From Escherichia phage vB_EcoM_ASO2A: DNA of 64,000 nucleotides. The notes under the pieces are model-generated. The model saw nothing but the letters and a program-made list of their open reading frames with translations, had not been told where the DNA came from and ran no database searches. The stretch is taken from the sequence record MZ726793.1; one strand, given 5' to 3'. Shown here piece after piece: positions 2,695-63,169 of this stretch (positions are counted from its first letter, which is position 1; each line of letters starts with the position of its first letter). The position numbers and the translations under genes were made by a program.

Positions 2695-2756
2695 TTGACA
2701 ACAATTATAAATCGGGTAGAATGTATTTCGTAGGGCGGGGCAATAAGGCAACGCCC
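2695..2756 (+). promoter_or_regulatory. promoter + 5' hairpin cassette, copy 7
   Basis: -35 TTGACA 2695-2700, -10 TAGAAT 2717-2722, ttcgTAGGGCGgggcaataaggcaaCGCCC from 2731. Confidence 0.55.
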
Positions 2757-2774
2757 ATTAATGAGGGTAGAATC

Positions 2775-2879
2775 ATGTTAGAGAAAATTTTCACGGTCGT
2801 AGTAGTGGGCCTGGCGTTATCGGTTGGAGTGGTTGCAACTATGGCTAACATGATCCTATCTTCCCACGGTATTGGATAA
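2775..2879 (+). CDS. 34-aa hydrophobic (transmembrane) peptide
   Basis: not in track; gagggtagaatcATG; MLEKIFTVVVVGLALSVGVVATMANMILSSHGIG. Confidence 0.4.
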   Translation: MLEKIFTVVVVGLALSVGVVATMANMILSSHGIG

Positions 2880-2889
2880 GGTGAATCAA

Positions 2890-3105
2890 ATGATCACGAA
2901 TAAGACAGGTAAAACAGAATTTTTACGCGCCTTGCAGATCGGCAAGCCTGAGATCTGGCATTGCACTAAATCCGCGCATAATGAAATGAAAGATTTTACC
3001 GCTACTTTACAACGTGTTAAAATATCTATCACACAGAAAAAAGCCTTGTTAGTAGTAGAAAACGAGATCCCGCAAACTATTATTATTGTCGAGCGTACAG
3101 CATGA
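2890..3105 (+). CDS. hypothetical protein (71 aa)
   Basis: aaggtgaatcaaATG; track start 2872 is TTG. Confidence 0.5.
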   Translation: MITNKTGKTEFLRALQIGKPEIWHCTKSAHNEMKDFTATLQRVKISITQKKALLVVENEIPQTIIIVERTA

Positions 3106-3488
3106 AAACAGAAATCATTATTGAAATCATCAACGGTTATAAAGAAGCCTTTATTTTTGCTGAATCAGCAAGGGATCATGAAGGTAATTTTATTGATAAC
3201 TTAGACGATTATGATTTTTCTCCTAGCGCGGACGAACGGATCGCCCAGGATGTAACAGCCTTTATTAATGCTAATCTTGCCGCTATCTCTGAGGCAATGA
3301 GCGACGGCGCAACAGCCAACCAGATCGGGAATGATTTACATTTTACCCGTAACGGTCACGGCGCAGGCTTTTGGGATCGCCCTGAAATATACACCACTAA
3401 CACGGCGAACCGCCTAACCAATGCAGCTAAGTTTATGCCGAACGTGTCGGCTTACATTGGTGAAGATAATTTGATTTATATTGAATAA
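3102..3488 (+). CDS. hypothetical protein (128 aa) with TRNGHGAGFWD motif
   Basis: ATGA overlap with upstream stop; I recognise the motif but no function. Confidence 0.6.
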   Translation: MKTEIIIEIINGYKEAFIFAESARDHEGNFIDNLDDYDFSPSADERIAQDVTAFINANLAAISEAMSDGATANQIGNDLHFTRNGHGAGFWDRPEIYTTNTANRLTNAAKFMPNVSAYIGEDNLIYIE

Positions 3489-3494
3489 AAAGTA

Positions 3495-3552
3495 TTGACA
3501 CCGATCCCCAATATGGTACTATTTACCACGTAGGCGGGAAATGGTTTCCCGC
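3495..3552 (+). promoter_or_regulatory. promoter + 5' hairpin cassette, copy 8
   Basis: -35 TTGACA 3495-3500, -10 TACTAT 3517-3522, cacgTAGGCGGGAAAtggTTTCCCGCC from 3531. Confidence 0.6.
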
Positions 3553-3576
3553 CAGGTAATCAAAAAGGTAAATACT

Positions 3577-3966
3577 ATGCGCAACCTGGTTTCTGTTTCT
3601 AACGTTGAAAAATTTCAATCTTTACAGGGTATCGTTAACAACGTAGCGCCTTTTTTAGTCAACGGCTTGATTGCAAAGATGAAAAATAAACATCATGCGG
3701 CATGGTCTGCTTACTGCTTTGATAATGATGAAAAAGCGGCTGAAATGATGCTAAATATGCTGTTAGACAGTGTAGAATCATCTTTACCGGAAAACATCGC
3801 AGAAGAGATCACCTATCGTTATAATATGGCGATCACTTACCAGGAGGTTGCGCAATTTAATATGATGGACGATGACGAACAACAGGATCAGGAAATGTTT
3901 TGGGAGTATGCTGATCGTCAATCGGCTTTTGATGAAAAATTAGCGATGTATTATAACGAATATTAA
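3577..3966 (+). CDS. hypothetical protein (129 aa)
   Basis: aaaaggtaaatactATG; track start 3541 lies inside the hairpin. Confidence 0.6.
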   Translation: MRNLVSVSNVEKFQSLQGIVNNVAPFLVNGLIAKMKNKHHAAWSAYCFDNDEKAAEMMLNMLLDSVESSLPENIAEEITYRYNMAITYQEVAQFNMMDDDEQQDQEMFWEYADRQSAFDEKLAMYYNEY

Positions 3967-3983
3967 TACACGGTAAAAGAAAG

Positions 3984-4006
3984 GGGCGCACTAAGCGCCC
4001 TTTTTT
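3984..4006 (+). terminator. Rho-independent terminator, conserved hairpin copy 2
   Basis: GGGCGCACTAAGCGCCC + tttttt. Confidence 0.75.
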
Positions 4007-4071
4007 GTATTCTTTTTTCACGATGGAAACAACACGTAAAGAATAGGCGTAAAGGTGGCGTAAAACCATCT

Positions 4072-4164
4072 AAAACCGACTGTAACCGCTTAAACAAGGT
4101 AGGAATGATTAATCACCTTACCAGGATGAAAAAGCCGTTATAAAGCTATCTAGAGCGTTTAAAG
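4072..4164 (+). repeat. post-terminator non-coding module, copy 1 (related to 5180-5296)
   Basis: shares aaaaccgac ... taccagg..gccgtta.a.agc.at.tagagcg.ttaaa with copy 2, roughly 60-70 percent identical by eye. Confidence 0.45.
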
Positions 4165-4351
4165 CACATAGGAAATAATTTGCTTTTTATCTTGCCTTTT
4201 ACCCTGCTTTTGATTATTATTATGGAACGGGCGGCACCTGGAAGCAGGGGAAGATAATCACCGGAAGACCCCGCTATATATTGATAGCTAACATCTATCA
4301 AACAACAAAACATCAAAGAGATAAACTATCAAATCTTTACAATCCTACCTA

Positions 4352-4410
4352 TTGACACCGGATCACGCTTACATTATCATTTATCACGTAGGGCGGGAAT
4401 GTTTCCCGCC
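4352..4410 (+). promoter_or_regulatory. promoter + 5' hairpin cassette, copy 9
   Basis: -35 TTGACA 4352-4357, -10 TATCAT 4375-4380, cacgTAGGGCGGGAAtgTTTCCCGCC from 4389. Confidence 0.6.
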
Positions 4411-4428
4411 TGATTTAGGAGTCATATC

Positions 4429-4662
4429 ATGATCGAACAAATTAAAAGCACTAAACCAAATGTTAACGGTAATGTTTCTCACTTTATCGGGGATAATGAA
4501 AGAGGTACACCGTACGCCGCCGTAACCGTTCAACCGAACGGGGATTATTGGTTTACCGTGTACGGATCTTACTCTTTTGGACGTTCGGCACATGATAAGA
4601 TCTTGCAAGTGGTTAAGCCTACTGGGAAGAATATCACAGCAGAAAAATTTTATAAAAAATAA
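4429..4662 (+). CDS. hypothetical protein (77 aa)
   Basis: ttaggagtcatatcATG. Confidence 0.6.
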   Translation: MIEQIKSTKPNVNGNVSHFIGDNERGTPYAAVTVQPNGDYWFTVYGSYSFGRSAHDKILQVVKPTGKNITAEKFYKK

Positions 4663-4663
4663 C

Positions 4664-4723
4664 TTGCTTTATAGCTCCTGTTAACTTATAGTTATTGCGT
4701 AGGGCGAGCAATACAGCAAGCCC
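4664..4723 (+). promoter_or_regulatory. promoter + 5' hairpin cassette, copy 10
   Basis: -35 TTGCTT 4664-4669, -10 TATAGT 4687-4692, tgcgTAGGGCgagcaatacagcaaGCCC from 4700. Confidence 0.5.
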
Positions 4724-4741
4724 ACAAAGAGGAAAATAAAA

Positions 4742-5110
4742 ATGAGCAAATCAGCAATTAAAGCACTTGAAAAAGCACAAGAAGTGATCGCAACGTCAAC
4801 CACTGGCGCAAAGGTTAATCTTGTTGGTTATCTGACAGATGAAACTATCCGTAAAAATTGGCGTAATGCTGATTTACTGGCTTGCTTATTGATTAATAGT
4901 GTCGCTAATGCTTTCCAGTGCGAAACAGCCGAGAGCCTGGAGGAAAACTTGTTTGATAATATGGATCAAGCCATTGAAACCTATATACAATCAAACATGG
5001 ATAGCTGGAACAGTAAAACATGGCCCGACAATTTACGCGATACAACTGATCAACTGATCCGCCTTGCCCTGATGGTTGAACGCGATAACGTTCACAACCG
5101 CACAAAGTAA
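4742..5110 (+). CDS. hypothetical protein (122 aa)
   Basis: aaagaggaaaataaaaATG. Confidence 0.6.
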   Translation: MSKSAIKALEKAQEVIATSTTGAKVNLVGYLTDETIRKNWRNADLLACLLINSVANAFQCETAESLEENLFDNMDQAIETYIQSNMDSWNSKTWPDNLRDTTDQLIRLALMVERDNVHNRTK

Positions 5111-5121
5111 GATTATACAAG

Positions 5122-5147
5122 GGGCGCACTAAGCGCCCTTTCTTTTT
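5122..5147 (+). terminator. Rho-independent terminator, conserved hairpin copy 3
   Basis: GGGCGCACTAAGCGCCC + tttcttttt. Confidence 0.75.
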
Positions 5148-6659
5148 GCCTAAATAATGTTGATAGATTCCGCCTATGGAAAACCGACACAGAACAAAAC
5201 TGAATAAATAGCGGTATCGAGCTAATCAACCATTAAACGAATAACCATACCTCCCAGGGTAACAGGCTGTTAGAGAGCCATTTAGAGCGGTTAAAATCGA
5301 TCAACAACCAACAACAAACCATCAAAAACACCCTTTTACCTCCTTTCTAGTGCAATGATAACCATTATCATCTATCCATGTTTATCTATGCAATATAAGT
5401 GCATAACTATAATGTTGATAATAGTTCGCAACAACTAACTAACCAACAACCTAAAACAATAAGCAAACTAATCATAATCAAAGGAATAATAGCAAGATGA
5501 TTGATAACGACAAACAATCAAACTATGATGAATACTAAGCAAGATAACGATAATACGACAAAACAACCAACTAACGAACAATAACAAACGAAACCATTAA
5601 AATAATAACTATTAGCAAAATAGTGCCTGAATGAAATCATTACAAAACGAATCATTCACAGGATCATCATTAGCACGCTATGCCGGACACATAGCGAGCT
5701 AATAATAAGCCAACTACACCCCAACAATCATAACCATCGGTGATGGTTATTTCTTGTTACTGCGTAGCTTGCAATAATTGCAAGCGTAATACGCTTACAC
5801 TTATTGCGCTGGCTTATTATTAGCATTATATGTAATTACCAAGATCATAACATTAGCGCAATAACAATAATCATTGTGGTAATTACAAGATGAAATCATT
5901 AGCAAGATGAATAATTGCACGTAGCAACATGAGCGAATAGCGACAGGTTGCATAGTGTGCACATAGATGTACACGCAGTGTATAAACATACAAGAAAATA
6001 AAGGCTAATCTTTCGGGGGCGAATACTATCGCGTAGCGATATGTTGAGCATCTTCTCTTAAACGTAAATAAAATCAGAAAATTCTTGATTTATTTTAGTT
6101 TTTATGTTAATAAACGTTTAAATAATAATCATTCTCATATAAATAATAGTCTGCTTGTCATGAGCGGGATCAGTTGACAATGTTCCGTCATATGATGAAG
6201 TTGCCAAACCATTGATAAATAAGTGTTTGTGTGATTTATAATCAAGTGGCCCACCTTGTCGCTATGTTGGCATGAGCCTTGCATAAGTCCTTGAATACGA
6301 ATGATAATTATTCTCATTCTCATGATATTTGGGAATTGTCGCTGCGTGGACCTGACGGCCCGAAAATTCGCGTTAAGCACTTCTTACGTATGCGCCATGA
6401 TTTTTGCCATATGATATTGATTCTATTAGATATTCTTGCCATGATTGCCATGAAACAGGGTGTCCCGAAATAATCTCTCCCCGTAGATATTTTGGGTTAC
6501 TTTTTATACAAGAGTGGGGTGTCAAAAATAATCGGTATATATGGGATAATTGATAGGAATCCCCTATGATAATTCGATTGTAATTCCCTGAGATTGATCG
6601 TATGATGTTGGTGATTGATGATTGCCATGAAAGATGGCTAACGATGAGAGGAGATTATC
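5148..6659. other. 1.5 kb gene-free, repeat- and palindrome-rich region
   Basis: no credible ORF. Plus strand is A+C rich and G poor over about 5280-5720. AGCAAGAT(G/A)A occurs at 5491, 5538, 5901. ATCATTAGCA occurs at 5666, 5895. Palindromes at 5730-5750, 5767-5785, 5782-5796. GATTGCCATGAAA occurs at 6443 and 6620. Confidence 0.6.
5180..5296 (+). repeat. post-terminator non-coding module, copy 2
   Basis: see 4072-4164. Confidence 0.45.
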
Positions 6660-7034
6660 ATGCAAGAGAGTAAAAATGTTCCGTTGAGTAGTGCAACATT
6701 GCTTCGCTTCTATAAAGCATGGATTGCCAACTATCCTGCAATGAATCGCACAACGAGTGGCTTATGTGGTTGTCTGGTGGATTATGTAGATGATTTTGTT
6801 GGTGAGACAACTAGAGAAGAAGATAGAAAATGGCGGGATAGTTTGTTGGACCGTTTGAAATATGAAATGAGGAAACAATTTACATGTGCAGGGCTGGACT
6901 ACAATCTTCCGTTCAATGCAGATTGCATGGATTACCTTTCAGAGTGTATAAACTTGGCGTGTCATACCAACACGTTACGTCTTCAATGGGTGAAAGACAG
7001 AATTGAAGATGCAAATAATGCTTGCATTGAATAA
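6660..7034 (+). CDS. GLC/WVKD paralog family, member 1 (124 aa)
   Basis: SD gagaggag; FYKAW, GLCGC, EMRKQF, LPFN, RLQWVKDR. Confidence 0.7.
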   Translation: MQESKNVPLSSATLLRFYKAWIANYPAMNRTTSGLCGCLVDYVDDFVGETTREEDRKWRDSLLDRLKYEMRKQFTCAGLDYNLPFNADCMDYLSECINLACHTNTLRLQWVKDRIEDANNACIE

Positions 7035-7093
7035 AGATGTTTGTATAATGGTTTGCATACCGCGCATAACAGATAGCCAATGAGGAGATTGAA

Positions 7094-7303
7094 ATGTCAA
7101 ATATGAAAACTGTATCCTTGTATTTAGCTAACACTGATCGTGTGCACACCCTTGCTAACGCAAGTCGTGTACTCGTGCAGTTTCGAAACTTCGCACCGTC
7201 CGTTGTGACAGGTAGTGAAACGTGTGTTATCGATTTCATTAACGAATACTTCCGAGGGAATCCGGTTGGTCGTTATTTCATTAAGGGTCTGAAGGATGCA
7301 TAA
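7094..7303 (+). CDS. hypothetical protein (69 aa)
   Basis: SD tgaggag. Confidence 0.6.
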   Translation: MSNMKTVSLYLANTDRVHTLANASRVLVQFRNFAPSVVTGSETCVIDFINEYFRGNPVGRYFIKGLKDA

Positions 7304-42378: not shown

Positions 42379-44619
42379 TCACATTTTGCAAGCTTCACAA
42401 CCACCATCAGAATCTTCTTGTGCTAAAGAGTCTGCTGATTTTGTTCTACTGTTAAGGTAATACAATGACTTGCCACCCAGTCTAGCAAAATTCAGAATAA
42501 ACTGCATCTCAGCTTTCACTGATAAACGTCCACCTACCAATTTAGAATAATCTAGCCAAGAATCACAAGAAATTCCTTGGTCCGTAAACTTGGTAAAGAT
42601 ACCATACATTTCTGCAAGATCTTTAGCCGGAGTGTCCCAGGCAGACTGGTAGAACATTTTCAGTTTTTCATAGTCTGGAACAATAAATAATACACTACCT
42701 TTCTGACTTTGTTTATACATAATAGTATCACGAACAGGATACAGAGAGTTAGTAGTATTGCTTACCAAACTGCTGGACTCATTAGGTGCAATAGCAGCCA
42801 AGACACTGTTACGGATACCACCTTGTTCAATGATTTCAGCACGTAAGCCTTCCCAGTCCATTTTAAGATCAAAATTACCGATACTATCTACTGTTTTAGC
42901 ATAAGTGTCAATTGGTAGCCAACCTTGAGGCCATTTGGTCTTATCGATCCATTCTGCATTACCTTTTTCCTTAGCCAGACGCAGAGAGGCTTTTGCCAAC
43001 CAAAAGTAATGACGTTCTGCAAGTTCATGCATTAATTTTTTAGCATAAGCGTCTGAATAATTTACAAAATTACTTGCCAAATAATGCGCTAAGTTTGTAA
43101 TGCCTACACCAATAGATCTACGTGCTTTAGCAGTTATTTCGTTATGTTTAAATGGATAATCCATTGTTTCAATAACGTTGTCAATTGTCAATACAGTGTA
43201 GTATGCAACATCCTCATATTCTTCAGGTAAGACACGACCAGCAACAATAGAAGATAAGAAGCATAAAGCCAATTCTTGATTTTCTGTATTCTCACCAGTA
43301 AAGAGATCCGGCATACTGTGGAAAGCTTTAGTTGGTAAGAAGATCTCTTGACACAGGTTTGATTGATACACCGTATCCAGGAAAGGTGTATGGTTGTTAA
43401 CGTTGTCAGCAAAGAACATGTAAATACGTCCTGTTTCTGCACGTTGAACAATAATCTCTGTCAGAAGATCACGAGCCTTAACAAATTTTTTCTTAATGCG
43501 ACGACGGCTTACTTTGTCATAAACTGCATCAAACTCTTCTTCACTTTTATACAAAGCTTCATAAAGTTCAGGAGCATCATCACAACTAACTAACATCCAA
43601 TCTTCGTTTTTTGCTGCTCGACGCAAGAACGAACGGTTAACAACAATAGAATAATCCAGTTTGTCTACTCGTTTATCTATAGGTGTTGTTGGATTCTTCA
43701 GTCGAATCAGATCGTCGAAGTCTGGTTCAAGTATGGTAAAGGTAACTGTAGCACTACCTCCACGGCTTGCTTGCTTCGAAGCTCCAACACTATCTTCCAT
43801 CCATTTCAGATACGGAAGAAGACCACCATGAATAATACGATTATTCTTAACACCTTGACCTGTGGCACGAGTTTGAAGATTAACACCAATACCTGCGTTA
43901 TTCAACGTATACTCATGAGCTAAGTAATTAGCAATGGCTAAAGACTCTGCCGTATCGTCTGCACGGAACAAACAACAAGACGCACTTCCTTTGATTGGAG
44001 TTCGTAGAGTTGTCAGATACGGCGATGGCAGATTAATCTTAAGATCGCTAACATAAGTATAAAGTTTTTTAATATCTTCTATACGGCGTTCTTTTGGTTG
44101 GATCTCCATAACCTTCATTGCGATACCAATGAAAAGAAACTGTGGAGACTCATGCACCACATCGTTTACTGCATCTCGAATAAGATATTTATCTACCATC
44201 TGACGTAAAACAGAATAACCATAAGTTAGATTTTTATTATGCTTTACAATCTTACCGATTTCTTTGATCTCTTCATCAGTATAATCCATTTTAGCCCAAT
44301 GTCCACGTTCTACCATATCATGATAAAAGGTATTCAGTGAAGGGATACTGTGGTATCCCCCATGAGCCTGTTTGTAAATCATACCCAGAAGAAGTCTTCC
44401 TGCCATATCACTGTAAGCTTGTGTTTTCTTGTCAATACACGCTGCAATCATTGCTTTATGCAGATCACGTGTAGACACACCGTCATAACACCGCTTCACA
44501 GCTTCTAATTCAATTTCAGACCAGTTTAGTTTACCTGCTGCAAATTCAGACCACTTGCGAAGTTTTTCTGGATTAAACTCCTCTGTCTTACCGTTAGATT
44601 TAGTTACAAAACGAATCAA
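42379..44619 (-). CDS. nrdA: ribonucleotide reductase class Ia alpha subunit
   Basis: 746 aa; N-terminal ATP-cone-like VTKSNGKTEEFNPEKL, ..SCCL.., NLCQEI, C-terminal CEAC pair; TTG start after gggaggag. Confidence 0.95.
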   Translation of the reverse strand: MIRFVTKSNGKTEEFNPEKLRKWSEFAAGKLNWSEIELEAVKRCYDGVSTRDLHKAMIAACIDKKTQAYSDMAGRLLLGMIYKQAHGGYHSIPSLNTFYHDMVERGHWAKMDYTDEEIKEIGKIVKHNKNLTYGYSVLRQMVDKYLIRDAVNDVVHESPQFLFIGIAMKVMEIQPKERRIEDIKKLYTYVSDLKINLPSPYLTTLRTPIKGSASCCLFRADDTAESLAIANYLAHEYTLNNAGIGVNLQTRATGQGVKNNRIIHGGLLPYLKWMEDSVGASKQASRGGSATVTFTILEPDFDDLIRLKNPTTPIDKRVDKLDYSIVVNRSFLRRAAKNEDWMLVSCDDAPELYEALYKSEEEFDAVYDKVSRRRIKKKFVKARDLLTEIIVQRAETGRIYMFFADNVNNHTPFLDTVYQSNLCQEIFLPTKAFHSMPDLFTGENTENQELALCFLSSIVAGRVLPEEYEDVAYYTVLTIDNVIETMDYPFKHNEITAKARRSIGVGITNLAHYLASNFVNYSDAYAKKLMHELAERHYFWLAKASLRLAKEKGNAEWIDKTKWPQGWLPIDTYAKTVDSIGNFDLKMDWEGLRAEIIEQGGIRNSVLAAIAPNESSSLVSNTTNSLYPVRDTIMYKQSQKGSVLFIVPDYEKLKMFYQSAWDTPAKDLAEMYGIFTKFTDQGISCDSWLDYSKLVGGRLSVKAEMQFILNFARLGGKSLYYLNSRTKSADSLAQEDSDGGCEACKM

Positions 44620-61156: not shown

Positions 61157-61231
61157 GGCCCTGTAGCTCAATGGGAGAGCTGTCGGCTCATAACCGATAG
61201 GTAGCTGGATCGAAACCAGCCAGGGCCACCA
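61157..61231 (+). tRNA. tRNA-Met (CAT), CCA encoded
   Basis: acceptor GGCCCTG/CAGGGCC, anticodon loop CTCATAA, T arm GCTGG-ATCGAAA-CCAGC. Confidence 0.85.
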
Positions 61232-61233
61232 AC

Positions 61234-61308
61234 GTCTTTATGGTGTAATGGATAGCACAGGAGTCTTCTAAACTCTTAGTCAAGGTTCGATTCCTTGTAA
61301 AGACACCA
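61234..61308 (+). tRNA. tRNA-Arg (TCT), CCA encoded
   Basis: acceptor GTCTTTA/TAAAGAC, loop CTTCTAA, T arm CAAGG-TTCGATT-CCTTG. Confidence 0.85.
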
Positions 61309-61309
61309 G

Positions 61310-61492
61310 AACATTTTAACATGAATTAGCTCAAGTGATTTGAACCCACTACTGATCATGGTGGCAGAGAATGAGGCAAGTATGTCAGACATTATAAACA
61401 AAGGCCACGGTTATATTAGAAGACATAAATGCTCGAAGAGCACCGTTCGTGGAGAACGGGGTTGGTGGAGTCACCATTCATGGTAAAATGTT
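61310..61492 (+). ncRNA. about 180-nt structured non-tRNA RNA
   Basis: 17-nt closing stem AACATTTTAACATGAAT (61310-61326) / ATTCATGGTAAAATGTT (61476-61492), 16 of 17 paired; internal hairpin CCGTTCgtggaGAACGG. Confidence 0.45.
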
Positions 61493-61503
61493 TTAAAAAA
61501 CTA

Positions 61504-61533
61504 TTGACAACTAACATTATTTTATGTTAGATT
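61504..61533 (+). promoter_or_regulatory. tRNA-operon promoter P2
   Basis: aaaaCTATTGACAA, 18 nt, TGtTAGATT; inverted repeat CTAACAT/ATGTTAG at 61511-61530. Confidence 0.6.
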
Positions 61534-61541
61534 ATAAGTAT

Positions 61542-61632
61542 GGAAGGGCAAATCGACGTGGCGACGAAAACGGTCTTGAAAACCGCCGAGCTTGAAAGAG
61601 CCTTGGGAGTTCGACTCTCCCTCCTTCCGCCA
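61542..61632 (+). tRNA. tRNA-Ser (TGA), type II
   Basis: acceptor GGAAGGG/TCCTTCC, G73, loop CTTGAAA, long variable arm GCTTgaaaGAGC, T arm GGGAG-TTCGACT-CTCCC; D arm atypical in my hand fold. Confidence 0.75.
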
Positions 61633-61637
61633 GATTA

Positions 61638-61723
61638 GGTAGATTGGTGAAATGGTAGCCACGACAGTTTGCTAAACTGTAGTCGGAAACGGCGTGTAGG
61701 TTCGAGTCCTACATCTACCGCCA
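61638..61723 (+). tRNA. tRNA-Ser (GCT), type II
   Basis: acceptor GGTAGAT/ATCTACC, G73, loop TTGCTAA, variable arm GTCGgaaaCGGC. Confidence 0.85.
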
Positions 61724-61853
61724 AGTTCTTTTTAATATAGCTTACTTTAGCAGAGTAAATCTTCGGCAAGTGGCGGTAACCACTTTACCGATAACTCATA
61801 GTTAGTGGTGTGAACACTGGCTATTTTAAAAAGAATTTAAATATTAGTATTTA

Positions 61854-61941
61854 GGTGAGTTAATTCCGTAGGGGTAGCGGGGCAGACTGTAAATCTGTTA
61901 TCATTGCGATTCGGGTGGTTCGACTCCATCACTCACCACCA
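61854..61941 (+). tRNA. tRNA-Tyr (GTA), type II
   Basis: acceptor GGTGAGT/ACTCACC, A73, GCAGA-CTGTAAA-TCTGT as in E. coli tRNA-Tyr; D-arm junction atypical. Confidence 0.8.
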
Positions 61942-61947
61942 AATTAA

Positions 61948-62033
61948 GATGAGTTGGCTGAATGGTTTAAGCGGCGGACTGTTAATCCGTGTTCGAAAGA
62001 ACGATATAGGTTCAAATCCTATACTCATCGCCA
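61948..62033 (+). tRNA. type II (long variable arm) tRNA with GTT (Asn) anticodon and G73
   Basis: acceptor GATGAGT/ACTCATC, D stem GCT/AGC, GCGGA-CTGTTAA-TCCGT, variable arm GTTCgaaaGAAC+gat, T arm ATAGG-TTCAAAT-CCTAT. Confidence 0.6.
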
Positions 62034-62040
62034 GAATTAT

Positions 62041-62117
62041 GGACTTGTAGAGTTAAGGTAAACCCCCAGTCGCCAAGAGGCTTCTGGAATTGCAGGTATC
62101 GAATCCTGCCGAGTCCC
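62041..62117 (+). ncRNA. tRNA-like element without an anticodon loop
   Basis: acceptor GGACTTG/CGAGTCC, D arm with GG, T arm GCAGG..CCTGC (8-nt loop). The anticodon arm is replaced by CCAGtcGCCaagaGGCttCTGG. No CCA. Confidence 0.35.
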
Positions 62118-62123
62118 AGCTTT

Positions 62124-62198
62124 GCTCCTATAGTATAATGGCTATTACAACGGTTTTGTAATCCGTGGATCTCTGTTCGATTCAGAGTGGGAGCACCA
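62124..62198 (+). tRNA. tRNA-Thr (TGT)
   Basis: acceptor GCTCCTA/TGGGAGC, loop TTTGTAA, T arm CTCTG-TTCGATT-CAGAG. Confidence 0.8.
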
Positions 62199-62473
62199 AC
62201 ACAACATTAAGGGCACTGTGATTGATCGTCGTATCCTGTGCACAAGGTCTGTTCGAAAGACAGTGTTCTTAGTATTGTGTTGATCACACAAAAAGAGTTA
62301 CCTGAAACTTGACCGGAGTAGGGTTGGATGGGGCAAAAGAAGAAGCGGCTCTCCCATCGACAGCAACGAAGAATAATATTTGACTTTGGTTTTGTATTAT
62401 TTTAAGTTAGCTTACCGAACGTAGGGCTAGTCACCCAACGGGATACTCGTCACTGTCCCACTCAATAAAACTA

Positions 62474-62503
62474 TTGACAACCAATAGTAAAATGTAGTAT
62501 AGT
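62474..62503 (+). promoter_or_regulatory. tRNA-operon promoter P3
   Basis: aaaaCTATTGACAA, 18 nt, TATAGT 62498-62503. Confidence 0.6.
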
Positions 62504-62524
62504 AAAGATGTAGGGCGTTCTTGG

Positions 62525-62598
62525 TGTAGCGGTAGCATTCCGTCCTTCCAAGTCGGCGGCACGAGTTCGATCCTCGTAGAACGCTCCAAATTATTTAA
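62525..62598 (+). tRNA. tRNA-Gly (TCC)
   Basis: acceptor GCGTTCT/AGAACGC, loop CTTCCAA, T arm ACGAG-TTCGATC-CTCGT. Confidence 0.8.
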
Positions 62599-62678
62599 TA
62601 AAGGGTTGCCAGAAAACTTTCTCTTTTACTCATGGTTTTCTCCTTCTCTCACACCTCTTCTGGTTGCCCTTCATTAAA
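62594..62678 (+). ncRNA. long hairpin RNA with a 43-nt pyrimidine-rich loop
   Basis: arms TTTAATAAAGGGTTGCCAGAA / TTCTGGTTGCCCTTCATTAAA (about 18 of 21 paired); the loop contains TCTCCTTCTCTCACACCTC. Confidence 0.45.
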
Positions 62679-62686
62679 TGATTTAT

Positions 62687-62762
62687 TGGTTTGTAGTGTA
62701 GTCCGGTAGCACACGACACTTTGACTGTCGTAGGTTTGGTTCAAATCCAGACAGACCAGCCA
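62687..62762 (+). tRNA. tRNA-Gln (TTG)
   Basis: U1-A72 acceptor TGGTTTG/CAGACCA, G73, loop CTTTGAC. Confidence 0.8.
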
Positions 62763-62855
62763 TATAACAAAGGTGAGTCACTACCTCAAGTGTGAAGTTA
62801 AAAACGAGGAGCCGCCGAACACTTTCTTTTGCGGTGTACCTTTAGAATGTTATGA

Positions 62856-62932
62856 CGGAATTTAGCTCAGTTTGGTAGAGTGTACGCTTTGGGAGCGTAT
62901 TGTCGCAGGTTCGAATCCTGCAATTCCGACCA
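62856..62932 (+). tRNA. tRNA-Pro (TGG)
   Basis: acceptor CGGAATT/AATTCCG, loop TTTGGGA, T arm GCAGG-TTCGAAT-CCTGC. Confidence 0.85.
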
Positions 62933-62938
62933 ATTAAA

Positions 62939-63012
62939 TGTTTCGTAGTTCAATGGTAGAACCCACGACTGATAATCGTGAGATACAAGTTCGATTCTTG
63001 TCGAAACAACCA
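62939..63012 (+). tRNA. tRNA-Ile (GAT)
   Basis: acceptor TGTTTCG/CGAAACA, loop CTGATAA, T arm ACAAG-TTCGATT-CTTGT. Confidence 0.8.
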
Positions 63013-63014
63013 GT

Positions 63015-63084
63015 TTCCCGTTAGACTTACAGGATAAGAGTTCCACAATTTATTGTGACGCTGGTTCGAATCCAGCACGGGATA
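63015..63084 (+). ncRNA. tRNA-like element without an anticodon loop
   Basis: acceptor tTCCCGT/ACGGGAt and T arm GCTGG-TTCGAAT-CCAGC are intact. The anticodon arm is CACAA-ttta-TTGTG (4-nt loop). No CCA. Confidence 0.35.
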
Positions 63085-63090
63085 CATAAT

Positions 63091-63169
63091 AGCGGGATAG
63101 AGGAGTCTGGTCGTCCTCGCCAGTTTCATATGCTGGAGATCATTGGTTCAAATCCAATTCCCGCCTCCA
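63091..63169 (+). tRNA. tRNA with CAT anticodon (Met, or Ile2 if lysidine-modified), 1:72 mismatch
   Basis: acceptor aGCGGGA/TCCCGCc, loop TTCATAT, T arm ATTGG-TTCAAAT-CCAAT, CCA encoded. Confidence 0.75.

Follow-up and report, generated by a model that had tools for sequence, protein, structure and literature searches.

Layout and coding content of the tract

The window, that is, the whole 64-kb stretch of DNA that was analysed, stems from a phAPEC8-like coliphage of the genus Phapecoctavirus with a linear genome of about 150 kb. The tract under study (5148-6659, 1.5 kb) follows the intrinsic terminator of the rightmost plus-strand operon and ends in front of a gene with its ATG at 6660 and a ribosome binding site at 6646-6653. 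An overview of the features within and next to the tract is given in Table 1.

Table 1 Features of the gene-free tract and its left border. Positions are those of the window; DTR, direct terminal repeat
Feature	Position	Strand	Remarks
Intrinsic terminator of the rightmost plus-strand operon	5119-5141	+	GGGGCGC-actaa-GCGCCCC, then T-run; terminator scan
Non-coding DNA, right genome end	5148-6046		about 900 bp left of the DTR
Strand-asymmetric block	5280-5660		plus strand A 45-48%, G 11%; minus strand C 10%, T 47%
Upstream Fur-box-like palindrome	5351-5369		TGCAATGATAACCATTATC; 15/19 to Fur consensus
ATTAGC/GCTAAT cluster	5611-6009		seven motifs, ATCATTAGCA-type
Five-helix structured element	5676-5824	-	~150 nt; folding and covariation
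Helix H1, long-range closing stem	5824-5811 with 5711-5698	-	
Helix H2	5807-5792 with 5786-5771	-	
Helix H3	5769-5762 with 5719-5712	-	
Helix H4	5750-5742 with 5738-5730	-	
Helix H5	5696-5689 with 5683-5676	-	
Hypervariable, indel-rich spacer from folded element to DTR	5831-6046		identity 51-86% among close phapecoctaviruses
Left boundary motif GTTG|AGCA	6043-6050		putative terminase nick/cut site
DTR	6047-6375		329 bp
DTR box A	6118-6136		TTAAATAATAATCATTCTC; near left genome end
DTR box B, Fur-box-like array	6303-6321	-	16/19 to Fur consensus; ~55 nt before right boundary
Right boundary motif GTTA|AGCA	6372-6379		putative terminase nick/cut site
Leader, left genome end	6376-6659	+	~285 bp, upstream of first gene

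The original prediction, made from the sequence of the window, described the tract as free of genes, and this description holds. Plus-strand ORFs of at least 40 aa are absent from 5110-6279. Minus-strand ORFs in the tract reach 81 aa, and all of them are interrupted in relatives by stop codons or shifts of the frame. In a protein-coding test, stops or frameshifts disrupt each of the 18 tract ORFs of at least 30 aa in other lineages, and none stays intact across genera. A short minus-strand ORF (5331-5233, 32 aa) whose Shine-Dalgarno sequence is perfect (AAGGAGGT) was considered and rejected, as it is not kept in relatives: in-frame stops occur in six of nine Phapecoctavirus and phiWec relatives, among them EcG1, ETEC-TG, AV126, Schickermooser and phiWec. 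The start codon is also lost in phiWec, and the frame is shifted in other genera.

The layout of the tract is conserved well beyond the genus. An unannotated gap of 1.5-2 kb is kept in every Stephanstirmvirinae lineage examined, and phage Av-05 from a different subfamily (Vequintavirinae) shows the same arrangement. The genome map of rV5 contains an unexplained 'non-coding' box. The sequence of the terminator is kept in all lineages including Av-05, and it is annotated as such in the phAPEC8 and Schickermooser records. The high identity of 5148-5830 to phiWec (90-98%) was dismissed as an additional sign of constraint: the neighbouring gene is likewise 93-95% identical, so that the similarity reflects the relatedness of a mosaic block. 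At the other side of the tract, the leader contains promoter-like sites and a 20-nt repeat (ATGATTGCCATGAAA) at 6441 and 6618. It is 90% identical to that of the Justusliebigvirus muut, yet the DTRs of both phages are not alignable. When sites were scored against the sigma-70 consensus, the best ones in the tract were an overlapping pair at 5486-5529, which is not kept outside the phAPEC8/phiWec block.

Terminal repeat and genome ends

The Schickermooser record begins and ends with exactly the same 329 nt, which map to 6047-6375 of the window. In at least 11 independent phapecoctavirus submissions (3A1, 10C3, 118_SA_NWU, WPEC1, 2, 4, 6, Mt1B1_P17, BI-EHEC, Schickermooser, Ro121lw), the record ends agree to the base with this segment. 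Its positions 1-329 lie flush with these ends, which indicates fixed, non-permuted boundaries, and besides Schickermooser seven records hold the segment at both ends. The DTR of the source phage is 95-99% identical to that of its relatives, from which its own ends are inferred: virion DNA would start at 6047 (AGCATCTTCTC...) and end at 6375 (...TTCGCGTTA). The source record contains a single copy, presumably because the two were collapsed during assembly, and both virion ends would carry the DTR. A terminus with a 329-bp DTR at this position can be regarded as almost certain. The tract as a whole is thus supported as the joint of two physical genome ends, and with the ends located at the DTR, the DNA to the left of the repeat represents a non-coding right genome end.

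These positions agree with published data. A terminal repeat of 328 bp was reported for Schickermooser (PMC6563267), the termini of Mt1B1_P17 were mapped with PhageTerm (PMC10470868), and a DTR of 342 bp is known from BME3 of the sister genus (PMC12210895); DTR ends have been stated for all Stephanstirmvirinae. Read starts that pile up at the ends, with about two-fold coverage of the repeat, are published for Mt1B1_P17 and BME3. The short direct terminal repeat is a repeat class in PhageTerm (PMC5557969). For Justusliebigvirus, VEcB was taken as end reference instead of BME3, since the BME3 record contains an extra copy of the repeat (98.8% identity) together with a duplicated element. Among the roles originally suggested for the tract, that of a genome end or terminal-repeat boundary is therefore borne out: the DTR of the genus falls inside the tract, the termini map to it, and it is conserved in relatives.

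Both boundaries of the DTR carry the motif GTTR|AGCA in the same register (the bar denotes the boundary), and the same is found in the sister genus. The left motif is kept in phiWec and in VEcB, whose record is cut at ..TTTGTTG|AGCC. The right motif is found in VEcB as ..CGCGTTA|AGCACC about 343 nt into the record, in agreement with the DTR length of BME3. A gapped similarity between the neighbourhoods of the two boundaries was not significant (49 of 500 shuffles); the in-register 8-mer is significant and was alone retained. Inside the left boundary, the beginning of the DTR (6049-6148, 17% GC) is richer in AT than any other 100-bp segment of the 64 kb. Outside of it, the variable spacer is closed by a hairpin-capable palindrome (6028-6040) located 6 nt ahead of the left cut. 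This palindrome occurs in three compensating versions, namely ATCGC-gta-GCGAT, CCGCC-aca-GGCGG and CCGCC-tat-GGCGG. Owing to the hypervariable spacer, the distance between folded element and cut is not conserved, which argues against a rigid complex spanning both. The large terminase gene lies outside the window, in which a single ORF of at least 380 aa is found.

Composition, Fur-box-like palindromes and the folded element

The right genome end is marked by a pronounced strand asymmetry. The original prediction noted this skew and called the plus strand almost G-free; the skew is real, but the wording was too strong. Over 5280-5720, the plus strand consists of 45% A, 21% C, 11% G and 22% T, and its G content lies at about the 1st percentile of all 441-bp windows without being the lowest in the 64 kb. 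G-depletion is kept despite diverged sequence, with 5-11% G on the plus strand across lineages. It is even stronger in the diverged ones: G drops to 8% in KP13-26 and, in a stretch of 440-456 nt, to 5-6% in Justusliebigvirus.

The recurrent short motifs of the original prediction were all recovered at their positions and are concentrated in the tract, which holds three of the four window copies of AGCAAGAT[GA]A and both copies each of ATCATTAGCA and GATTGCCATGAAA. ATTAGC motifs are clustered locally, with about 0.2 motifs expected for the stretch that contains seven, but they are not enriched window-wide (31 copies versus 35 expected). Two of the clustered motifs make up the invariant outer portion of helix H1, and in KP13-26 units carrying the motif are amplified. 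The palindromes at 5730-5750, 5767-5785, 5782-5796 and 6028-6040 are present as well. A further small palindrome, TATGCA..TGCATA, is located at 5387-5405 after the upstream Fur-box-like palindrome. The features stressed originally, i.e. the A+C-rich block, the ATTAGC-type motifs and the palindromes at 5730-5796, thus exist, but they are found 220-770 bp outside the repeat. They may have a role in packaging or replication.

Palindromes in and next to the DTR resemble the Fur box of E. coli (consensus GATAATGATAATCATTATC, e.g. PMC4506495). Matches of 16/19 (6303-6321) and 15/19 (5351-5369) compare with 0.01 expected in shuffles of the tract. A box is found at the same relative position as the upstream one in phiWec, Justusliebigvirus, KP13-26 and Av-05. 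Box A follows downstream of the invariant AAATCAGAA..TCTTGATTT with constant spacing, and Justusliebigvirus carries GCAAATGATAATCATTATC at its position (17/19). The flanks of box B are conserved (aagtcaTTGAAT ... GATATTTGrGG), and phiWec and muut score 15-17/19 there. At corresponding places, phiWec and Justusliebigvirus reach 17/19. Scores of 15-17/19 recur at conserved positions in four lineages, and box length differs between lineages by one 6-nt unit, as expected of hexamer arrays. In contrast to known Fur boxes, a clear conserved overlap with promoters is lacking; such overlap is not consistently seen. Fur may bind to these boxes, or they could instead serve a phage protein. A literature search did not return reports that link Fur boxes to phage terminal repeats.

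Between the asymmetric block and the spacer, the tract contains an element of five helices. Folding of 5655-5840 is far more stable than that of shuffled sequences (z = -6.8 to -8.4). The consensus structure on the minus strand comprises 53 pairs, 14 of which are compensatory with changes on both sides. All 737 of 737 pair cells are paired, a value matched by none of 500 shuffles, while slid controls reach 23-53%. The element holds in an enlarged alignment of 20 sequences, and a covariance model detects a single copy in the window (177 bits). It was found in all Stephanstirmvirinae lineages sampled and adjoins the terminal repeat in each of them. It is very probably a real base-paired structure.

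The folded strand is probably the minus strand, as the same pairs comprise 71 G.U cells on this strand versus 71 A.C cells on the plus strand. If the strand call is limited to the hairpin predicted on both strands, five of five wobble positions agree, which is suggestive but not decisive. Minus-strand promoter-like sites are located upstream of the element (ATGTTA-17-TATAAT at 5853-5825 and TTAACA-18-AAGAAT at 6110-6081); they are weak and not conserved, and no convincing conserved promoter for the element was found on this strand. Likewise, the terminator scan did not detect an intrinsic terminator downstream of the element on the minus strand.

Within the element, a G-run of the TGGGGTG type is conserved and the 19-nt palindrome at 5767-5785 is invariant. 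This palindrome, GCTTGCAAT-a-ATTGCAAGC, had been predicted correctly as a sequence, but the pairing backed by covariation is a different one, in which half of the palindrome takes part in a longer covarying hairpin (5771-5807). The palindrome itself was rejected as an RNA helix, since it is invariant and without covariation, and it is treated as a possible protein site. A search of Rfam 15 on both strands with permissive E-values yielded only two chance-level matches (E ~0.8-0.9, far below gathering scores). Pattern matches in bacterial genomes and several metagenomes (L021, L026, L030-L038) were attributed to chance by profile and covariance model searches. So far as searched, neither the element nor the Fur-like boxes are described in the literature, and the element is not part of Rfam. 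The terminal repeat was known before from relatives; the folded element, the conserved G-depletion and the Fur-like boxes are new.

Possible roles of the right genome end

We lean towards a reading in which the tract is both the joint of the genome ends and a control region for their handling. After replication, genomes would be joined head to tail via the repeat. By analogy to T7-type phages, the terminase would recognise the GTTR|AGCA motif of either boundary, and duplication of the repeat would provide two copies per packaged genome. The right end would then present, in this order, the strong terminator, a pair of Fur-box-like operators, an asymmetric block of 300-450 nt (G-poor on the plus and C-poor on the minus strand), the five-helix element and the variable spacer, which closes with a small hairpin just ahead of the cut. 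The invariant palindromes and ATTAGC repeats on the element look like protein-binding sites. Folded element and skewed block may together constitute a cis-acting signal that is used when the right end is replicated or packaged; the element could fold in a transcript that starts in the repeat and runs leftward, or in the minus strand of the DNA once this is displaced. To the right of the repeat, the ~285 bp would serve as leader of the first early genes. Whether the tract acts in end replication or packaging rather than purely in transcription control is close to evenly balanced, slightly on the unfavourable side. Only tentatively can the element be proposed as a new class of cis-acting structure for these processes in rV5/phi92/phAPEC8-type myoviruses, be it RNA or a displaced DNA strand, with the box arrays tying the first transcription or the processing of the ends to the iron status of the host via its Fur protein.

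The closest parallel is found in T7 and T3. As in the source phage, both of their genome ends carry an identical short repeat whose boundaries are fixed and specified by sequence, the flanking DNA is non-coding and contains brief recurring motifs, and palindromic sequence is found just within the right-hand repeat. In T7, concatemer processing gives rise to a hairpin end at this place, and a secondary origin together with the promoter phiOR adjoins the right-hand repeat. rV5-type phages, the group of the source phage, encode a replisome that resembles that of T7 in having a primase-helicase of the gp4 type and a polymerase of family A, which makes T7-style handling of the ends plausible. The differences are substantial, however. 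The source phage is a 150-kb myovirus without a phage RNA polymerase, its repeat measures 329 bp versus 160 bp in T7, and its flank is a covarying five-helix fold of ~150 nt in place of a simple array of 7-bp repeats. Furthermore, it carries Fur-box-like operators and has no sequence similarity to T7. The DTRs of Schickermooser, BME3 and Mt1B1_P17 within Stephanstirmvirinae represent the same repeat with the same boundaries (95-99% identity). The published reports give its length only, and the searchable papers do not contain the boundary motif, the tract, the fold or the boxes.

Several other explanations were weighed against that of a joint with a control region for end handling. It is possible, though not probable, that the tract is a transcriptional insulator. 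Both flanks are transcribed rightward, so that in concatemers the rightmost operon could be read through into the repeat and early genes of the next genome. The block would act in stages, by the terminator, by a long untranslated G-poor RNA with C > G that would be ideal for Rho loading, and by the hairpin cluster. The co-oriented flanking genes and the strong conserved terminator fit this idea, as do the plus-strand G-depletion with C > G that outlasts sequence divergence and a plus-strand hairpin (5730-5750) that is followed by a T-run and scored terminator-like. G-depletion is the most effective way of keeping RNA unstructured, as in Rho utilisation sites. However, C makes up only 17-21%, below classical rut sites, the wobble pattern favours the minus strand, and an insulator would not need the invariant palindromes, the ATTAGC repeats or the Fur-like boxes.

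A transcription-primed origin beside the right repeat, comparable to T7 phiOR, T4 oriF/oriG and ColE1 RNA II, may likewise be considered, albeit with reservation. Here, a leftward transcript would fold, an RNA-DNA hybrid (RNA G > C) would prime synthesis, and a helicase of the gp4 type would be loaded. The preference for the minus strand as the folded one, the positive GC skew in minus direction over 300-450 nt that is conserved across lineages, the G-run within the element and the T7-like replisome of the group are in line with this explanation. So are the AT-rich start of the repeat with the promoter-like minus-strand site at 6110-6081, and the clustered ATTAGC repeats and invariant palindromes, which resemble origin iterons. 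Besides the seven ATTAGC motifs within 400 bp, four AATGATAAYNATTMTCA boxes were counted. On the other hand, the -35 of this candidate promoter is not conserved in other lineages, the putative RNA contains only ~20% G, and a skew analysis of rV5 found no origin. The tract has no perfect DnaA box and is not enriched in such boxes (sites with one mismatch occur at 5.9/kb versus 3.2/kb window-wide), and GATC sites show no enriched clusters there. With ColE1 RNA II, T4 oriF/oriG and the G4- and phiX-type single-strand initiation signals, the element shares a multi-hairpin domain of ~150 nt beside a skewed AT-rich stretch and a folding strand that tolerates G.U or G.T wobble. Unlike it, those signals and R-loop origins are part of plasmids, T4 or ssDNA phages and are not located beside a terminal repeat, and neither sequence nor Rfam similarity to them was found.

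Somewhat more doubtful is an independent non-coding RNA of the phage, perhaps under iron control, that has no functional connection with the DNA ends and regulates, for example, host or phage genes; its gene would occupy the sole large non-coding space of the genome. G.U wobble, typical of RNA, is part of the covariation, the region is bordered by Fur-box-like operators whose positions are conserved, and an RNA missing from Rfam would constitute a new family. Yet conserved promoters and terminators bracket the element on neither strand, and it adjoins the terminal repeat in every lineage. In addition, neither the outer 10 bp of the closing stem nor the 19-nt palindrome covaries; both are invariant, which points to recognition of DNA by a protein. 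The pRNA of phi29 is comparable as a structured RNA of ~170 nt near a genome end that is used in packaging. It differs in that phi29 has protein-primed ends and lacks terminal-repeat cutting, that the Rfam search including pRNA families matched nothing in the tract, and that the tract shows no evident promoter and terminator as expected for an RNA gene of its own.

An injection stop of the T5 type, at which DNA entry would pause until early proteins are made, was part of the original prediction and is highly improbable. As in T5, a non-coding, repeat- and palindrome-rich locus adjoins the boundary of the terminal repeat, but the analogy fails on scale: the T5 repeat of ~10 kb carries pre-early genes, whereas the repeat of 329 bp contains no conserved ORF, so that such genes could not be expressed from a paused segment. 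Moreover, the part rich in repeats and palindromes belongs to the right end, which is remote from the early genes, and two-step transfer is not reported for the group. Just as improbable is degenerate former coding DNA under mutational bias that merely holds the repeat: the variable presence of the flanking genes 0017 and 0018 among relatives indicates that gene loss happens here and the spacer is hypervariable, but the size of the gap is maintained even in another subfamily, the 14 compensatory pairs face no broken pair, and boxes and composition bias persist across diverged sequence.

phAPEC8-, phi92- and rV5-type phages are among the most often isolated coliphages and are widely proposed for therapy. 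To our knowledge, recognition, duplication and replication of the ends are essentially unstudied in large myoviruses with short repeats. The covariation-supported fold of 150 nt, the skewed block and the conserved Fur-like operators inside the repeat offer three targets for mutation. If Fur indeed binds, a lytic phage would, unusually, have its genome ends or earliest promoters wired to the iron sensing of the host, with a bearing on how phages perform in the gut or bloodstream, where iron is limited. Many genome records of these phages have arbitrary start points or are labelled 'circularly permuted'. Ends at GTTR|AGCA together with the 329-bp repeat provide a simple rule for orienting and annotating such genomes. 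By the same rule, some small CDSs can be recognised as probably spurious, for example the seven that the ETEC-TG record places within the tract.

The tract contains the direct terminal repeat

The gene-free tract 5148-6659, whose coordinates and sequences were correct on re-check, marks the place where the genome ends meet and includes the direct terminal repeat (DTR), as one of the options in the original prediction (genome end, packaging site, injection stop or origin) had proposed. When only the tract was used as query in a distant blastn search, many GenBank records proved to start or stop inside it. In the record of Schickermooser, for which a 328-bp terminal repeat was reported by Korf et al. 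(PMC6563267), the first 329 nt are identical to the last 329 nt and map to window 6047-6375 at 96.6% identity. With this segment as sole query, positions 1-329 aligned right up to a record end in 3A1, 10C3, 118_SA_NWU, WPEC1, 2, 4 and 6, Mt1B1_P17, BI-EHEC, Schickermooser and Ro121lw, and several of these records hold it at both ends. The termini of Mt1B1_P17 were determined by PhageTerm (PMC10470868), a 342-bp DTR was obtained by PhageTerm for the sister-genus phage BME3, and Stephanstirmvirinae genomes end in direct terminal repeats according to a 2025 paper. The repeat is single-copy in the window, which matches the expectation for a collapsed assembly. Its position therefore splits the tract into right-end DNA, repeat and left-end leader (see table).

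Features of the tract and its surroundings (window coordinates unless stated otherwise)
Feature	Position	Strand	Details
Unique non-coding right-end DNA	5148-6046		
Upstream box	5351-5369		Fur-box-like palindrome
Sigma-70-like site	5501-5529	plus	TTGATA-17-TATGAT
Sigma-70-like site	5513-5486	minus	TTGTCG-16-TATTAT, upstream TG
Folded element	5676-5824		five helices
Perfect 15-bp inverted repeat	5698-5712 with 5810-5824		
Hairpin H4	5750-5742 with 5738-5730		
Direct terminal repeat	6047-6375		329 bp
Box A	6118-6136		Fur-box-like palindrome
Box B	6303-6321		Fur-box-like palindrome
Left-end leader	6376-6659		
gp0017			139 aa, phrog_12277; flanks the gap in phAPEC8 and many relatives
gp0018			114 aa, phrog_2510; flanks the gap in phAPEC8 and many relatives
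Av-05 stem arms	3445-3460 with 3547-3562 (Av-05)		GTTAACAATTTTGCAA with TTGCAAAATTGTTAAC

The left boundary reads ..ATGTTG/AGCATCTTCTCTTAAACGTA and the right boundary ..GCGTTA/AGCACTTCTTACGTA (slash, cut), thus placing GTTR/AGCA in exact register at both. This motif is kept in phiWec, whose repeat interior shows only ~70% identity. The record of the Justusliebigvirus VEcB is cut at ..TTTGTTG/AGCCTAC and contains ..CGCGTTA/AGCACC ~343 nt into the record, in agreement with the repeat length of BME3 (342 bp). When the wider boundary neighbourhoods were aligned with gaps, the similarity was not significant by itself (49/500 shuffles). A small palindrome with a 3-nt centre, originally noted near 6028, lies six nucleotides before the left cut; it is found as ATCGC-gta-GCGAT, CCGCC-aca-GGCGG or CCGCC-tat-GGCGG, three forms with compensating changes. 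No other 100 bp of the 64 kb are as AT-rich as those at the start of the repeat (17% GC); the first ~110 nt can be aligned across all lineages and the remainder diverges. The BME3 record (PP239276.1) has an annotated DTR-L at 146957-147298, a second copy (98.8%) 861 bp upstream and a partial repeat where the record begins; the folded element is also present twice. These extra copies reflect either misassembly around the repeat or a genuine tandem duplication.

By analogy, the conserved features flanking the repeat most likely act in cis when the right end is replicated, cut or packaged. In T7-type phages, a promoter and a secondary origin lie ahead of the right repeat, as does a palindrome that takes part in concatemer processing. 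This analogy is in keeping with the T7-like replisome of the present phage group.

Composition bias, promoter-like sites and Fur-box-like palindromes

The plus strand at 5280-5720 had been called almost G-free, which is too strong: G is low (around the first percentile of same-size windows) but still makes up 11%. In Phapecoctavirus and phiWec, A accounts for 47-50% and G for 10-12% of the plus strand between the upstream box and the folded element. The skewed blocks of Justusliebigvirus (5-6% G over 440-456 nt) and of the Klebsiella phage KP13-26 (8% G over 277 nt) align poorly with the window, and the low G content despite poor alignment indicates that the composition bias itself is maintained. 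The skew can be read in two ways. An unstructured plus-strand RNA with more C than G would suit Rho loading, and a transcriptional insulator between the co-oriented right-end and left-end operons is a possible but less likely alternative for the tract. A minus-strand transcript or displaced strand with more G than C would be R-loop-prone; a transcription-primed origin is likewise a possible but less likely alternative.

At 5486-5529, the tract's two highest-scoring sigma-70-like matches overlap in opposite, facing orientations. Both score in approximately the top 0.01% of the window and are conserved only in the phAPEC8/phiWec block. The short motifs listed in the original prediction cluster in the tract; the window as a whole shows no ATTAGC enrichment (31 copies vs. 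35 expected), but seven copies lie within 400 bp. In KP13-26 (~2700-3900), the spacer from the folded element to the presumed repeat is ~400 bp longer than in the window, and the extra DNA holds further TTATTAGC-type units, which gives the appearance of an expanded motif array. The leader region contains TTGCCAT four times within 6398-6637 (6403, 6435, 6445, 6622) and a 20-nt unit, ATGATTGCCATGAAA(c/g)A(g/t)GG, at 6441 and again at 6618, where it immediately precedes the ribosome binding site of the first gene. These repeats may represent an operator or 5'-UTR element of the earliest genes.

The pattern AATGATAAYNATTMTCA, which was derived post hoc, matches four sites with at most two mismatches (5354, 5601, 6121, 6300) and none in the other 62 kb (0.43 expected). 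Independent of this pattern is the 19-bp Fur consensus, confirmed in the literature, which is matched at 16/19 positions by box B and at 15/19 by the upstream box, compared to 0.01 matches in tract shuffles. Each lineage has a box ~245-305 nt from the start of the gap, plus one or two within the repeat. The boxes reach 17/19 in phiWec and Justusliebigvirus, though the repeats are otherwise unalignable between genera. Box B has conserved flanks, and its length varies by one 6-nt unit between lineages. Palindromes of 15-17/19 are found at conserved positions in and beside the repeat in four lineages, among them the three boxes of the window, VEcB ~73-91 and the box in the phiWec DTR. Through these boxes, the genome ends may be subject to host iron sensing (Fur) or to the action of a phage protein; a report linking Fur boxes to phage terminal repeats was not found in the searchable literature.

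A covariation-supported folded element

The palindromes originally noted at 5730-5796 are parts of one larger structure, enclosed by the perfect 15-bp inverted repeat. Folding z-scores for 5655-5840 are -6.8 for plus-strand RNA, -7.7 for minus-strand RNA and -8.4 for DNA. Fifteen aligned sequences, representing at least four lineages, show the closing stem in four Watson-Crick versions (AAGCCA/TGGCTT, AACGCA/TGCGTT, ACCGCA/TGCGGT, AACACA/TGTGTT), and the hairpins are likewise altered on both sides. RNAalifold predicts 53 pairs in five helices on the minus strand, 14 of them with compensatory changes (-65.8 kcal/mol; plus strand, -50.8 kcal/mol). All 737 of 737 cells (100%) are paired on this structure, the observed pairing or covariation was reached in 0/500 shuffles, and pairing falls to 23-53% with slid partners.

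On the minus strand, the pair set comprises 666 Watson-Crick and 71 G.U cells, the latter being A.C mismatches on the plus strand, a comparison biased by the choice of the minus strand for predicting the structure. For H4 only, a hairpin predicted identically on both strands, 5/5 wobble positions are G.U on the minus strand (20-sequence set, one misaligned row excluded). The minus strand is therefore favoured as the folded strand but not proven. A free-standing non-coding RNA is a possible but less likely reading. The 19-nt palindrome GCTTGCAAT-n-ATTGCAAGC does not vary at all, and neither do the outer 10 bp of the closing stem (GCTAATAATA/TATTATTAGC); such invariance in place of covariation is more characteristic of duplex DNA recognised by a protein.

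Searching the window with a covariance model gave a single match (5672-5829, minus strand, 177 bits), and the element is the part of the tract that is recognisable everywhere (75-81% in muut and KP13-26). Pattern scans yielded nine further homologs from metagenomes; matches in bacterial genomes were due to chance. Rfam contains no match for the element. The repeat is already known for the genus; no description of the boundary motif, tract anatomy, covariation-supported element, conserved composition bias or Fur-like boxes was found in the searchable literature or Rfam.

Conservation, coding potential and mosaicism

Megablast with window 4700-7100 matched 118 phage records at 92-98% identity, nearly all Escherichia phages (Phapecoctavirus, Stephanstirmvirinae). 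The homologous stretch in phAPEC8 is an unannotated ~1.5 kb gap (5513 to 7021) between the terminator after gp0017 and gp0018. A gap of 1.5-2 kb is also found in SKA64, vB_Ec-G1 and ETEC-TG, in the phiWec lineage, ZCKP1 and AV126, in the Justusliebigvirus members muut, inny and ALITA, and in the unclassified KP13-26. The window lacks the gp0017 and gp0018 genes and retains the gap (window 5110-5148 and 6659-6660 vs. 2050-2469 and 4013-4357 of the compared sequence L001). vB_Ec-G1 has the same short form, so that a presence/absence polymorphism directly abuts the terminal non-coding tract.

The absence of a credible ORF was confirmed: there is no plus-strand ORF of at least 40 aa between 5110 and 6279, and all tract ORFs of at least 30 aa are interrupted in other lineages. 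One minus-strand ORF of 32 aa, preceded by a perfect AAGGAGGT, is disrupted by TTG>TAG or TGG>TAG in six relatives, and its start codon is missing in phiWec. The ETEC-TG record (OR786310.1, 2464-3979) annotates seven small minus-strand CDSs (35-69 aa) within the tract, with similar calls in WPEC1/6 and EP57; these are probably spurious because none is conserved across relatives. Decayed coding sequence was rejected as a reading of the tract, as was the originally suggested T5-type injection-stop locus.

In the Vequintavirinae phage Av-05, a 1.9-kb unannotated gap (2910-4826) has the layout of the window's tract, with the same terminator, an A+C-rich run, two boxes and a perfect 16-bp long-range stem that encloses hairpins and occupies the corresponding relative position (weak covariance model match, 19.5 bits). 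The architecture may be general to rV5-like phages. The genome map in the rV5 paper shows a 'non-coding' box without ORFs; that genome was then assumed to be circularly permuted.

Identity to phiWec is 91-93% in 5148-5830, 93-95% in the adjacent gene and 69-70% in the repeat. Identity to muut is 90-97% in 6376-7034 (leader 90%, first gene 97%), and the muut repeat is unalignable. Recombination breakpoints thus appear to cluster at the repeat boundaries. An apparent hyper-conservation of the left part of the tract reflects block relatedness, as its identity to phiWec equals that of the adjacent gene.

Three records named Campylobacter phage B15, A150 and C3 (MG065650, MG065639, MG065656; stated host Campylobacter jejuni) show 95-97% identity to E. 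coli Stephanstirmvirinae across the tract, and their host label is doubtful. Ten tRNA genes are clustered at 61.1-63.2 kb (61157-63169). A single ORF of at least 380 aa is found in the whole 64 kb (42379-44619, minus strand), and the window therefore consists almost entirely of small genes of unknown function.
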